A stretch of DNA of 64,000 nt from Kondoa subrosea (Eukaryota), in NCBI GenBank assembly GCA_039545335.1, contig BCIN01000006.1, positions 1-64,000 on the forward strand, in the 5' to 3' direction. This document shows positions 1 through 5,959 of the stretch, piece by piece. Under the pieces are notes generated by a model. It was not told the origin of the DNA. It was given only the letters and a program-made list of their open reading frames with translations, and ran no database searches. Position numbers and translations under genes: made by a program. The stretch's first letter is position 1, and each line of letters starts with the position of its first letter.

Positions 1-80
1 TAACTCTTCATAACTCTTCATAACTCTCGCTAACTCTTCATAACTCTCGCTAACTCTTCATAACTCTCGCTAACTCTTCG
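1..80 (+). repeat. Putative telomeric array of two 10-mer variants (TAACTCTTCA / TAACTCTCGC)
   Basis: Eight tandem 10-mers at the very start of the window, order A A B A B A B A'. The C-rich strand is at the 5' end, as expected for a left chromosome end. The G strand reads TTAGCGAGAG/TTATGAAGAG. Confidence 0.75.
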
Positions 81-1236
81 TGTATTGAGCAATCACTGAT
101 CTATCTTTGATCATTGTGATTGTCGCTCCAGAGTCTGCACAGAGTGTGTCAGAACGAGCAGGGAACAGTGAGGCACGACTTGCAGCTAGCATAGCTTGAG
201 GAGAATCTTCTTCTTCCTCTACTGCGATTCGAGCATGTTGAGCTGGTTTCTTTGCAGATTGAGATGACTTCTTTTTCTCATATTCAGCTTTCTTCTCCTC
301 AACAAAGTTCTTGATAGCAAAGCAGGTTTCTGTAGAATGACTTCCAGTGCCATGAAGCATACAACTCTTTCCATCCACCTTATCACCACCTTTCTTTTGC
401 TGCTGATTGCGACTTCGAACGAAAGCTTTGCTAGCTATTTCTTGTTTGACTACATCAGGCTTGAATCTTGGTTGTAAAGAAGCGTTCTGAAGTGAAGCGA
501 CAAGATGAGACATGGGTAGTTCTGATTGGATTGAGAGATTTGCAGAGAATGATTGGACTGTTTCGCTGTCAGAGTGACCAAGGGCATTAAGAACTGCGTA
601 TTTCTCTATTTCTTTGATGAATTCTCCAAGTGTAAGGGGTTCGTAGCGTTTCTGCGGATTTTGGGAAAGGAGCTGCATAGGATCTTCTGAAGGTTTCTTG
701 CAGGTAGCTAGAAGAACTTCAGACAGTTGTTTAGCTTTGGGCAGAAGGGCTGTGAGAGGTTCTTCGGCGTCATGAGAAAGGGAAAGAAGAGCAGAAATCG
801 CATTGAAGCGACCAGCTCCTGTTGGAAGAGCTCGTTGTCCTTTGAGGATATTGAGCGCATCGACTGGGTTGCGAATGCCACTAATCAAGGTAGCATGTTC
901 TGAGTCGATGTATTGACGAATGATACCAAGCGCCTTGTTATTTGCCTTTCGAAGTTCTTCTGGAGATCGCTCGAATGGTTCTTCAAAAAGATCTTGTACA
1001 TCGTTGAACAGGCACAAAGCGACTAGCTGATTCTCCCATTCTTGAAAATTTGTTTCTTGACCTCCGTTTCGAGAGAGAATGATTTTTCGATGTTTTGAAT
1101 CCTCAGACATGTTTGGTGTCCTTGCTGTTTGTTGCTGAGGAGTATGGTGTGAGTCAGATCTAGCGTAGAGGTCTGCAATGTGATTTGAGCTGTTTGCAGG
1201 AAGTGCAGATTGAACAGTTTTGATGTTCGTTCTTCA

Positions 1237-1249
1237 AGGGCTCATAACC
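1237..1249 (-). other. Primer-binding site complementary to the anticodon stem-loop of initiator tRNA-Met
   Basis: The minus strand reads GGTTATGAGCCCT, complementary to tRNA-iMet AGGGCUCAUAACC. This is the half-tRNA priming mode of Ty5 and Drosophila copia. Confidence 0.8.
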
Positions 1250-1526
1250 TTTCAAAAGCTGAACTCTTAGTAGATCAGAATATGACTTTGCAATATGAAT
1301 GTTCTACATTACCTGAACTCTTAGTAGATCAGAATATGACTGATCAAGAACAACAGAGTTCAGGTTTCTTATATACAGCCAAGTGGCAAGATATTCGATA
1401 CCTTTCCCTCTGGTGGGTTCGATCTGATTCGTTCCCAGGACTGCTGAGCCGCCTCGCGCGAGCTACCCAATCAGGTTTCAATCAACGATCGTCATATCAG
1501 GAAGGGAGGGAGTGTTAAGTGAGAAA
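1250..1526 (-). repeat. Putative 5' LTR of the copia element
   Basis: Adjacent to the PBS. Minus-strand TATATAAG at about 1368-1375. Internal 29-bp direct repeat CTGAACTCTTAGTAGATCAGAATATGACT at 1259-1287 and 1313-1341. The outer boundary is guessed from the TTTC...GAAA symmetry. Confidence 0.55.
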
Positions 1527-1719
1527 GCTTCCCAGCATGACAAGATGAGGAGAGATAGGAAAGATTGGGATAAGCGGATGTCTTTCCTCAGCAACGACTG
1601 AGCAGACATACCGCAGGTATGGGATGTAGATCGCGTATGCAATATAGCAACGACTGAGCAGACATACCGCAGTCCACATCTGCATACATAATGACACTCA
1701 GTACGAGTCGAACAAGACA
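1527..1719 (-). mobile_element. Probable LTR remnant of a second element, interrupted by the copia insertion
   Basis: Non-coding. Contains a 27-bp direct repeat AGCAACGACTGAGCAGACATACCGCAG (1590-1616 and 1646-1672). The minus strand begins TGTC at 1719. Confidence 0.35.
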
Positions 1720-2384
1720 TCAGGCCTAAACCTCACTTGTGAATTGCAGATAATCCATTTTGTGCTCCACTGTATTCTCTACCTGCTGCCATTCTTCAGC
1801 AAAATCGGGATCATTGCACCGTTCAGCGCCAATGTCGAATTGTCTGCGAGGTTTAGTGAAAAGACTCAAGCGCGACTTGACGGAAATCGTATTGCCAAAG
1901 ACAATCTGTTGCATGACCTGGACGTCTATGACTTCTACATCTTCTTCGATCCGATCCATCTCTTCACCTTCTTCATCTTCTTCCTCATCTGCCTCATCTT
2001 GAGCAGCTGGTGCTCGCACGAAAAGATCAGGTGCGAACTCGACCGAGTCAAGCGCGGAAAGCATGACATTTGTTGCGTTAGGCCGACTTCTATGCAAGCT
2101 TTCACTATACACATCTGGGTCTTCATTGAACCTGCGCAGCGCGGACTGCATGCTGCTTCAAAGTCGAGAAAGGTGTTGAGTCGGAACAAAAGGCAAAATC
2201 GTGCCAAGTCTCGATCACCCTCTGAGCGGCTGTCGGATCAATCCGCAGGGATCAGAGACATGTCTTTGCTGACATAAGCGCTCACGTCATCTTCGGAGAC
2301 TTTATGGGAAATGGTTTTTCAAGAGCTCGACATTTTCATTTGAAATAACCAGCCAAATAACCAGATGGTTTTTACCTATATAAT

Positions 2385-3240
2385 TGGTTGTCGCTGAGGG
2401 CGAGTTATTGAGACTGAATTCGACCAATGGGAGTAAATCAGCCCAATCGTCTTGTTCATAACCGATATAAGCGCGAAGAACTTGCTCCAAAGACTGATTC
2501 GCTCTTTCGGTTTGCCCATCAGTTTCAGGATGATAAGAAGTCGACATATTGAGCTTCGTGCCCGATCTAGCAAATAGTTCTTTCCAGAACGCAGAGGTAA
2601 AGCGAGGATCTCGATCTGAAACAATCGATAGCGGGAAACCATGCAAACTGATTACTCGCAGGAAAAGCAAAGCTGACTGTTTCGCATCGATTTCTTTATG
2701 ACACGGGAAGAGGTGAACCATTTTAGTGAAGCGGTCGACTATGGTAAAGATCGCATCGTAACCACTTGAAAGAGGTAAGTCCATGATGAAATCCATCGAA
2801 ACATCTTGCCAAGGTCCTTTTGGAGCAGGTAACGGCTGGATCTGACCACGAGGCTTGTGCGGACGATTCTTTGAGCGTTGGCAGATATCGCAGGAGCAGA
2901 TATACGCTCGAATGAATTCGCGCATTTTTGGGAAGTAAAAGTCGGAGACCACTAGATGTTCCGTTTTATCTTGTCCCAGATGTCCAGCCATATTCGAATC
3001 GTGTCTTTCCGTCAAGATTTCGATCCGTAGGTCATGGGTCGGAAGATATAAGCGCTTCGAATCTTTCCAAATCAACCCATCTTGATAAACCAAACCCTTC
3101 AAACTCGAACTAATTGCCCGGCTTCTGGGTAAGGTAGGGTCCTTGAGGTACGGTAGGTACTCCCAAGTATCATTCGCTTGAGCTAGGCGAACTTTTTGCA
3201 GTAGTTCATTGTTCCAGGATGAGGTAGAGATCGCATTCAC
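2385..3240 (-). mobile_element. Ty3/gypsy integrase fragment
   Basis: H2C2 zinc-binding region (HD...GHLG...CDICQ) and rve core with DDE residues (VSMDFI, SDRDPRFTS, HPETDGQTER). RT and RNaseH are absent, and similarity stops after NNSPSATT. Confidence 0.92.
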
Positions 3241-5959
3241 TTTTTGCGTAGGCCTCTTATTCTGAGCAGGACCGTACTCTTCTTTTGAGACTCAGACATG
3301 GTTTTATACGGATTAAGAGCTATTAGATGCCGCAGAAACAAAGTTTTTTGAGCAGGGTTTGACGACGTTTTGGTTACATTGAAATCTCCCTTATCGCTTA
3401 TCTTTCTTTTCTTTCAAAGTTTTCGGCCGGGACAGACTTGGGTCATTTCCCCGCTACACTTCGGCTTGAAGAATGTTGTTAAATCCGACTCTTGCTTAAA
3501 TCCGACTCCTGGCCAGGAGTCAGCCACAAGGCAGGAGTGGTGGCGGTCTGTTCTAACTTCCTCAAAGCCGTTGGATGTTGCTGAAGGCTCGGCTCTACCA
3601 GTGCCTAAAATGGTATGCGGGCTTGTGATCCTCTTCAATCCTTTCAAAGAGATCCGCATTATATCTGCATCAGCCTATTGAAGTCGCCCGGACCAAATAT
3701 TGGGGCAACTGCCACCTCTACTGTGCTCTACTAGGGATGTTCAAAGACCCCAGGGTTGTCAATATATGCGCGTAAGCGTATTGCCATGCCAGTGATGCTA
3801 AACATTTTTCTTGTCGCTATATCTAGGTGAATATTATACACCTATCGCTACAAGCTCTTGTGTTACGGCATGCATACTATACACACAGATCAAGGCCAAA
3901 AGATTGCCAAAGAAGCAACATTTGGCCTACTAATGACGCGTCGTGATTTGTTTACTCAAAGTCATTTTTCTCCCCGAGAAAAAAAGATCCAGCTTAGCGA
4001 GTAACAGTTCTGGACAGATCTCAATAGCCTCTAAAATACTGTACTATCGAAAATAGATTCGCGAAACCGAAAGAATTACCAAGTGAAGTAGCAAGCGGTA
4101 AAGCAGAAAGAAAGCCGATCACAGCTTGCCAAACAGTAGGTCTCGCTTCAAGTGCTCAGCTTCGGTCGAACGTCGCGTTCAAGCAAGCGCGAAGCAACAG
4201 CTGAGCATAAACAAGGCAGTCTGTCGAAATAGCAGAGCAGAAACCAGCGAGAGATGTTTTGGCAAAAGGTAAGAATGAGAGCCGGGGACAGCATGTGTTT
4301 AGAGTCTTGTATCGCAGCTTCAGTAGCGGTCCTTTTTTGACTGGTAGAAGTAGACCTGAGGGTAGGAGAAGCTGGCAGCAAGCATCTTTTACCAGTCGAG
4401 TAGAAAGGGAAAGAAAGGCGCGAAGTGTGCGTCAGCAAGCTTCAGAAAAATAGAGTGCAAGTGACCAGTGTCTCCAAGTCTTCTAAGGAGAAGTATCGGA
4501 GAAGTATTGAAGCAGTCGCTCAAATAGAGCAGTCAACAGTGAAAGGGCAAGTCGGTGTAGTTCAATCAAGGCCATGACAGCAGCAAGTAGTCTTCAGCCT
4601 CGAGCAATGCTTTCCTCTCGAGCCAAAGCTGTCAATCCAAGTAAGTCGCAAGCTTAGAAGCGTAGGGCGAGCTGGATTCGATCATTGTGGAAGCTTGGCA
4701 CAAGGGCGAAGAGTGGAGAGTGAATTCGAGCTTAAGCAAGCCAGTGGAAGTCTCAGTAGCAATCGAGGCAGATTCATTTGTGTAGATTGTATTATGATCA
4801 TGCTTGACTGTTGACGACTCTGTTCGCCAATAAGCAAGTTGCAGGAAGCCACCTCTTGCAGCTTGAAGCCAATCAATGGGTTGTCGAAACACGATGATCA
4901 CAAGCCTGCTAACTCGACCAGCTCTATCTCGCAAAAGGTGCAGCAGCTTCCGATATCTGACTACTGAAGTACCAGAGGCATTGATAGGTTCATGGGAAAG
5001 GATAGCTCCAAAACGGCAGCAGTATGAAGAGAAGTATGGGCAGGCGCTGGAAGCTGCGGCGAAGGCGTGAGCGAATCGATATTTGTCTTCGGTTCTTGTT
5101 CATCTAGATGTCAGGCTCGTCAAGCTGAGAAGTCAAGTCAACCAAACCAGCGAGCGGCGCTTCTAAGCTATCAAGCAACTCATCTCTGCAACAGGTACCT
5201 TCTGCTGTTGTAGCTCCTTCATTGCCGAGCATTGCCGAGCGAGATAGATCAGGGAGGAGCAAAAGCGGCATGAAGGTCAGCATAGCGCTCTGCGATTTCA
5301 GCCAAGCTCAAGGCATCTCAGCCTCAGTCGGCCATCATGGACCTACAAAAGCTTCTCACAAGGCACCCTGCATCTTCCGCTGAGGAGATTTCTGCCCTTT
5401 AGAGCTTGTCATGCTTCAGCCAAATCAACAGCGAAACTAGGCGCCCTCGTCCCAGTCGAAACCTACAGGCGAATGACTGCAATAGCTCGCGAGAATCTGC
5501 GCTTCATCATGCCTCTGCCTCGATAAACATCTGACGGAACCACTGGAGCGGAAAACAACTGTCTTGAATGGGCATTCGTTCCTTCTCCGTCAATCGTGCC
5601 AGCAGGCACATCAGAAACGAACATCGTTTTCTCTTTAGCCTTGTATAAGAGTCATGGTTCCCCTGCTCAGCCAGCTCTCATTCTAGCACGCTATACCGAT
5701 CTTGCTGTTCGAGGGAATCGTTATGCTTTGTTGCGAAATCGCAGAAGGTGATCTAGGATCTGGTCAGATGGTCTCAAATTGAGTACAAAGAGCTGCTTGA
5801 GATGGCCGGGCTGTCTCATAGCTTGAGGCGTCTTTCCTGCTCGTAACATTTAGCATTTCTCGCGTACTTCTGCTGCTATATTTGTAACATTTACTTGCTA
5901 GATGGCTCTGAGTTGAAAAGTAAATTCATGCTTGATTTGGGTGTGTTCTTAGCCCAGAT

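Follow-up and report, generated by a model that had tools for sequence, protein, structure and literature searches.

A telomere array joined directly to a truncated copia-type retrotransposon in Kondoa subrosea, a probable case of chromosome healing

The left end of contig C6 (C6L) of the Kondoa subrosea assembly carries a telomere array that directly adjoins a copia-type LTR retrotransposon cut off shortly after the start of its protease. Comparison with related copies points to terminal truncation of the element followed by telomerase healing as the probable, although by no means certain, origin of this structure. The window discussed below is the whole stretch of 64,000 nt that was analysed, i.e. 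bases 1–64000 of contig C6, with window base 1 corresponding to contig base 1. For a Sec7-domain gene of the window, the nearest match among named proteins comes from Cystobasidium minutum (58% identity), as would be expected for a Pucciniomycotina yeast.

The array (positions 1–79, plus strand, the assembled part only) presents the C-rich strand and is made up of two alternative 10-nt units, A (TAACTCTTCA) and B (TAACTCTCGC), of which seven complete ones follow in the order AABABAB, plus 9 nt of A. Arrays of the same units were identified at 6 of the 54 contig ends read in the 18.9-Mb assembly of 27 contigs (C1L, C2L, C2R, C3L, C4R and C6L), in all cases with the C-rich strand outward. The search of the assembly with a three-unit pattern returned 19 matches, every one at contig termini, and none for the reversed control, while the RNA-binding domain of TERT (PF12009) was detected at C3:1768358–1768805 (above the cut-off over C3:1768431–1768805, E-value 6.4e-19). 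Thus, the common polarity at six ends, the exclusively terminal pattern and the presence of a TERT domain in the genome identify positions 1–79 as a telomere of this genome. The innermost unit, described in the original prediction as imperfect, is indeed not whole, but it is simply an incomplete A unit, in which 9 of 9 bases match.

The assembly also contains eight internal 15-mer matches to the telomere, which were examined with a view to the telomerase RNA template. On the minus strand of the C5:193685 region, a 24-nt internal match with one B and one A unit exhibits a 4-nt direct repeat at both ends and lies in an intergenic gap of ~2.3 kb, with a long coding region on either side. Judging from its sequence, this locus is a candidate telomerase RNA template, which would account for the alternating units and for the AA and BB slips; rival internal matches are found at C1:3311047, C2:1399258 and C3:1936037. 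The Rfam search with the start of the window and four candidate templates yielded two matches, both far under the gathering score and none of them to telomerase. No paper on the telomere repeat of Cystobasidiomycetes was found in the open-access literature.

On the minus strand, an ORF runs from position 1110 to position 70 (346 aa from the ATG, 387 codons open from stop to stop, ending with ...ADSGATITMIKDRSVIAQYTKS) and exhibits neither an internal stop codon nor a frameshift. It covers the copia gag and the first ~20 residues of the protease, including the DSGA aspartic-protease motif (124–135, minus strand) about 15 codons ahead of the break, which aligns with the start of the Pol_BBD match (327–403) of C13. 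The ORF alone matched none of the Pfam families, hence its copia identity is drawn from its relatives. Residues 2–344 are 53% identical to an 877-codon ORF of two unplaced 4753-bp contigs, C13 and C14, which comprises Pol_BBD, gag_pre-integrase, rve and SH3 domains and is followed by an RVT_2 ORF, i.e. these relatives exhibit the order gag, protease, integrase and RVT_2-type reverse transcriptase (RT) typical for Ty1/copia. The window ORF is also 48–49% identical to a frameshifted copia copy on C3 and 33% identical to the protein P0095, which matches Retrotran_gag_2; the latter value is the best among seven matches in a protein library clustered at 50%. Three of the seven matches (P0097, P0099 and P0101) seem unrelated or are doubtful and were set aside, while P0098 and P0100 were left out of the comparison. 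Among the 340 codons compared with C13, the differences are concentrated in the third position (191, vs 123 and 78 at the other two), as would be expected for two lineages that diverged under selection.

No closer relative was found: the nearest copy in the same assembly shows 65% nucleotide identity over 1.3 kb, the protein database searches identified a close copy in none of 6067 longer candidates and in none of 2901 candidates of near length, and a close copy was confirmed in 0 of 575 and 0 of 599 pattern matches among metagenome contigs. In the absence of a parent or sister copy above 65% nucleotide identity, we infer the former presence of a full-length element at C6L from these more distant relatives.

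The upstream end of the element is well preserved. The 5' LTR (1250–1400, minus strand, 151 bp) is 78% identical over 150 bp to the LTR of C13 and to a solo LTR on C9 (L035 129–273), from which, together with its 5-bp flanking duplication, the ends of the window LTR were fixed. The termini are TA...TA in the C13 family, where a 5-bp duplication at the flanks sets them, and TA...AA in the window LTR; canonical LTRs begin with TG and end with CA. Since the window LTR begins exactly at the terminus known from its solo relative, as expected after integration, the copy seems to have arrived by integration. An exact direct repeat of 29 bp lies within the LTR (1313–1341 and 1259–1287); in this segment (1259–1341) the repeat ends in CAG and the first copy is followed by GT. 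Directly after the LTR lies a 12-mer resembling a primer-binding site (1238–1249, minus strand), whose exact sequence is single in the genome and which may be a half-tRNA(iMet) primer site. The tRNA scan of five loci revealed no tRNA genes, an uninformative outcome.

Downstream of the protease start everything is missing, including the 3' LTR. Compared with the ~4.8-kb element of C13/C14, ~3.5 kb have been lost, which agrees with the predicted deletion of integrase and RT. The known loss concerns only a distal patch of retroelements, and no gene is known to have been lost. The element had also been called young. This is plausible, because the frame is still open and argues against more than ~3–5% of neutral decay (the chance that a frame of 343 codons stays open after 5% neutral change is 0.02–0.10, assuming 0–5 indels per 100 substitutions), but with the second LTR gone the copy offers no date.

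At the junction the reading frame passes from the element into the array, as had been predicted: the gag-pol ORF is uninterrupted up to the repeats, and its stop codon TAG (70–72, minus strand) lies inside the array, at a place where the relatives exhibit sense codons. The window reads TAC ACG AAG AGT TAG in frame, vs TAC AGA GAG AGT AGT at the homologous site of C3 and TAC AGA GAG AGG AGT in C13 and C14. All three relatives continue in frame without an internal array, even if they are only 65% identical to the window copy; therefore, the telomere adjoins a sequence that in 3 of 3 related copies runs on array-free, and the truncation of the copia element under a genuine telomere is borne out by these continuing copies as well as by the restriction of the arrays to contig termini.

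The segment GAAGAGT (73–79, minus strand) constitutes an ambiguous zone, which may stem from the element as a seed, from newly added repeats, or in part from both. AGAG matches the array in register in all three relatives (77–74 for C13 and C14), AGAGT only in C3 (77–73). Near the homologous site, telomere-matching runs reach 5 nt in C13 and 6 nt in C3, compared with a background in which runs of at least 5 nt are found at 1.9–2.5% of positions and runs of at least 6 nt at 0.6–0.8%, or, calculated per 8-nt span, 11% and 3%, respectively. C3, C13 and C14 are sisters rather than independent samples of the seed. These comparisons lend mild support to a seed of 4–5 nt. A GAAGAG-like seed had been proposed; the relatives share 4–5 nt (AGAG or AGAGT) in register, but since the closest copy is only 65% identical, the full 6-nt GAAGAG is a possible seed that cannot be assigned to the element.

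The other chromosome ends provide a measure of how much of a seed is customary. Of the seven junctions, C6L included, three (C2R, C3L and a remnant buried at C2R) have a continuing copy by which the overlap was measured; C1L, C2L and C4R have no continuing copy among the loci examined and were left out of the seed measurement. At C2R, the telomere is joined to a sequence whose continuation is preserved on C5 in a copy of 99.6% identity, with an overlap of 2 nt. At C3L, it is joined inside the subtelomeric repeat (97% identical to C2R; compared with C2R, C5 and C4R), with an overlap of 1 nt. The buried 14-nt telomere remnant (C2R 571–584) also shows a 1-nt overlap, and its distal side is joined at a telomere-like AGAGTT site of a C5-type copy. 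Both testable termini and one buried remnant are thus truncated and re-capped ends, and these three junctions, with overlaps of only 1–2 nt, suggest that truncation and re-capping are common in this genome and require almost no seed.

C2R deserves attention in its own right: its layout (a 14-nt remnant, then 535 bp with 99.6% identity to C5, then the present telomere; C2R 43–584, L068, compared with C5:1492016–1492550) records at least two rounds of repair. Inverted telomere remnants were found at C2L (650–674, L029, 25 nt) and C4R (89–100, L070, 12 nt), and the one at C2L, which adjoins the subtelomeric repeat, is a possible old end fusion.

Or perhaps the telomere at C6L was acquired by recombination, if a microhomology deletion fused an AGAG(T) site of the element to the old telomere or if the end copied another telomere tract? 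The possible overlap of 4–7 nt exceeds the 1–2 nt at the three measured junctions, and the AGAGTT join at the C2R remnant demonstrates that joints at telomere-like microhomology do occur in this genome. Nonetheless, short overlaps appear to have sufficed for telomerase at other ends, seeds as long as 7 nt have been described for de novo telomere formation (PMC7367193), and the joint at C6L exhibits no positive sign of recombination, hence we regard this explanation as rather unlikely. The proposal that telomerase capped a break within the element is consistent with a real truncation and with the presence of TERT, and neither an array inside the related copies nor a failure of sequencing contigs to span the junction was found to contradict it; the sequence itself would look the same after synthesis by telomerase and after recombinational joining to an existing tract.

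The spanning of the junction was checked in the only two public runs recorded for this stretch (X1 and X2), no RNA run being found among the records in a search of the DNA kind; both come from one sample, perhaps the source of the assembly, and were analysed as contigs rather than reads. In each of them a single contig of 1553 nt covers positions 51–1603 with no differences. Its depth is 183.9 in X1 (182.8–189.7 in the neighbouring unique contigs) and 56.1 in X2 (62–90 in the neighbours), i.e. in both runs the junction is spanned by a contig of single-copy depth, though as one sample the runs are not independent. The telomere side of this contig comprises 29–30 letters, slightly less than the 31-letter bridging rule, and the evidence concerns the contigs listed, with 32 further loose ends.

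An assembly chimera, in which a telomere read was joined to a copia contig, would be in keeping with the short-read style of the assembly, the collapse of copia sequences into C13 and C14 and the overlaps between contig ends, and with the origin of both runs from one sample seen as contigs. It is opposed by the independently built run contigs, which span the junction free of differences and with the depth of unique sequence and thus speak for a single copy, by the overlap of at most 7 nt, which is far below the 31-letter word and probably too short to mislead an assembler, and by the subtelomeric repeat located 4 kb inside in the right orientation. We consider such an artefact very improbable.

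This subtelomeric repeat (4082–5775, plus strand) exhibits 72–88% identity to its counterparts at C1L, C2L, C2R, C3L and C4R, as well as at C11R, C5:1490055 and C6:1215260. It is present at all six capped ends in the same orientation to the telomere, its depth is raised in both runs, and the homologue of window position 4854 lies from 675 to 4854 bases from the tip, depending on the end. The copy at C6:1215260–1215916 is an internal partial one, far from the capped ends and continuous with 1.9 kb common to C1L (89%). According to the original prediction no subtelomeric buffer separates the element from the array; the element does adjoin the array directly, but the shared repeat is retained on its proximal side. 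Because the repeat is intact and proximal to copia, the break must have fallen in a distal patch of retroelement remnants.

Within this patch, positions 1499–1714 (plus strand, right end uncertain) contain a purine tract (1499–1512) followed by a TG-starting, LTR-like piece of another element in the opposite orientation, which is 88% identical over 106 bp to C6:633207–633312 in a match beginning at the same TG; from these sequence features it is probably an LTR. In the segment 1401–1512, an 11-nt purine run (minus strand) precedes the copia LTR and a 14-nt run (plus strand) precedes the LTR-like piece, the two pointing away from each other with 87 bp between them. Further inside, an open frame of 329 codons (2302–3291, minus strand) encodes a fragment of a Ty3/gypsy-type integrase (Integrase_H2C2, 5e-19, and rve); it is single in the assembly (one match, itself, among three candidates scored) and constitutes the second orphan, little-decayed retroelement piece at C6L. 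A 169-bp segment (3283–3451) is 96% identical to C10:285067–285235 and has double depth in both runs.

Such composition leaves some room for another history, in which the terminal 4 kb were built at a broken end from captured fragments of retroelements (a partial cDNA or a circle of copia and part of a gypsy element) and then capped, so that the copia copy would never have been full-length. The frames of the copia and the gypsy integrase pieces are both open and the assembly contains no close copy of either, two units of purine tract and LTR face apart at a distance of 87 bp, and the capture of internal DNA at failed telomeres is described for Pyricularia (PMC8381367). The 11-nt purine run ahead of the LTR, of a kind seen at 0.24–0.28% of positions in the background, was likewise counted against the healing of an integrated element. 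A circle or tandem junction should have left RT/RNase H coding sequence upstream of the LTR, but there is none; a tandem or circle origin of the LTR was rejected on this ground, and we find the capture of pieces as a whole quite unlikely.

Truncation followed by telomerase healing, the reading that we prefer, would involve the following steps. A copia element presumably integrated, pointing tipward, into the cluster of retroelement remnants on the distal side of the subtelomeric repeat. The chromosome end then broke or eroded back into the element from some cause, the truncation itself being evident from the comparison with relatives; this would have removed ~3.5 kb, i.e. most of the protease, integrase, RT/RNase H and the 3' LTR, together with anything beyond. 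Telomerase would have annealed to the exposed 3' end through its template, probably via an AGAG(T)-like match of 0–7 nt, and added repeats. The first full TTAG of the array falls in frame by chance and closes the ORF. The outcome would be a scar without a required function, one among several independently truncated and re-capped ends.

It may be asked whether copia has any particular association with telomeres. Telomere-targeted insertion of the element, or retention of a gag-only gene or of a telomere-ward promoter for some function, would fit with the intact LTR, primer site and frame pointing at the telomere, and Ty5 provides a precedent of a subtelomere-targeted LTR element (PMC1635262). 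However, no copia match was found in the last 10 kb of any of the five other capped ends, and among 14 RVT_2 matches none is at a capped end: they occupy internal sites (C2, C3 and C10), C13/C14, or positions within 5 kb of the uncapped right end of C6 (C6R). With copia at one of six capped ends, the element does not behave like the telomere-specific retroelements (Ty5-, MoTeR- or HeT-A-like), telomere targeting by the window copia was rejected because the other matches are internal, unplaced or near the uncapped C6R, and the open frame is accounted for by a recent origin. Targeting or retained function is therefore highly doubtful, and the event at C6L is not special to copia.

One could imagine, purely by analogy, that the healed end became a working unit and was kept: the LTR would drive a tipward RNA ending in telomere repeats, the Gag with a stub of protease would terminate at the telomere-derived stop, and the product might act as a dominant copia restriction factor or the locus as a promoter of telomeric RNA. 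The p22 protein of Ty1 is an analogue for Gag-derived dominant restriction of a copia family. We consider this scenario far-fetched.

The uncapped end has a peculiarity of its own. The right end of C6 and the left end of C4 overlap by 3496 bp at 99.9% identity inside a copia-rich cluster, hence the two contigs may belong to a single chromosome capped at C6L and C4R, and the cluster may be a centromere.

The closest parallels to C6L come from Pyricularia (Magnaporthe) oryzae, where telomere repeats lie directly on a truncated retroelement or subtelomeric repeat, common subtelomeres are truncated to differing depths (PMC1635262), seeds of 1–4 nt occur in 19 of 24 new telomeres and of 1–7 nt in 17 of 23 truncated MoTeRs (PMC7367193), and ends that failed may take up DNA from internal sites and leave remnants of telomeres buried (PMC8381367). 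In contrast, the MoTeRs are non-LTR elements inserted in the telomere that lose their 5' ends, and these events were caught in culture, whereas at C6L an LTR copia lacks its 3' part, at one end and in one assembly from which the event has to be reconstructed, in a basidiomycete whose telomere repeat comprises two 10-nt units.

In Cryptococcus neoformans, also a basidiomycete yeast, telomere repeats were added beside cut Tcn2 retrotransposons, in one of three cases after a telomere-like sequence (10.1101/809848); those breaks were Cas9-induced and centromeric, while the one at C6L is natural and subtelomeric. Among Ty1/copia elements (Pseudoviridae), the half-tRNA-primed ones such as Ty5 (PMC1181622) resemble the window element in the LTR, primer site, zinc-knuckle gag and the protease-integrase-RT order of its relatives. 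The LTR termini (TA...AA in the window, TA...TA in the C13 family) depart from the canonical TG...CA, and the window copy bears no sign of Ty5-like telomere targeting. No report of a telomere on a truncated copia element was found in the open-access literature, most subscription papers being outside this scope.

In summary, C6L offers a clean natural example of what appears to be chromosome healing in an LTR element, for which the genome supplies its own controls; the healing is ordinary for this genome, as other ends show the same. The three measured junctions suggest that chromosome ends of this yeast take new repeats on 1–2 matching bases, which is of modest value and implies no new mechanism. 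The two-unit repeat is unusual, and the seven junctions together with the candidate template locus could help to fix the register of the telomerase template in a little-studied fungal group.
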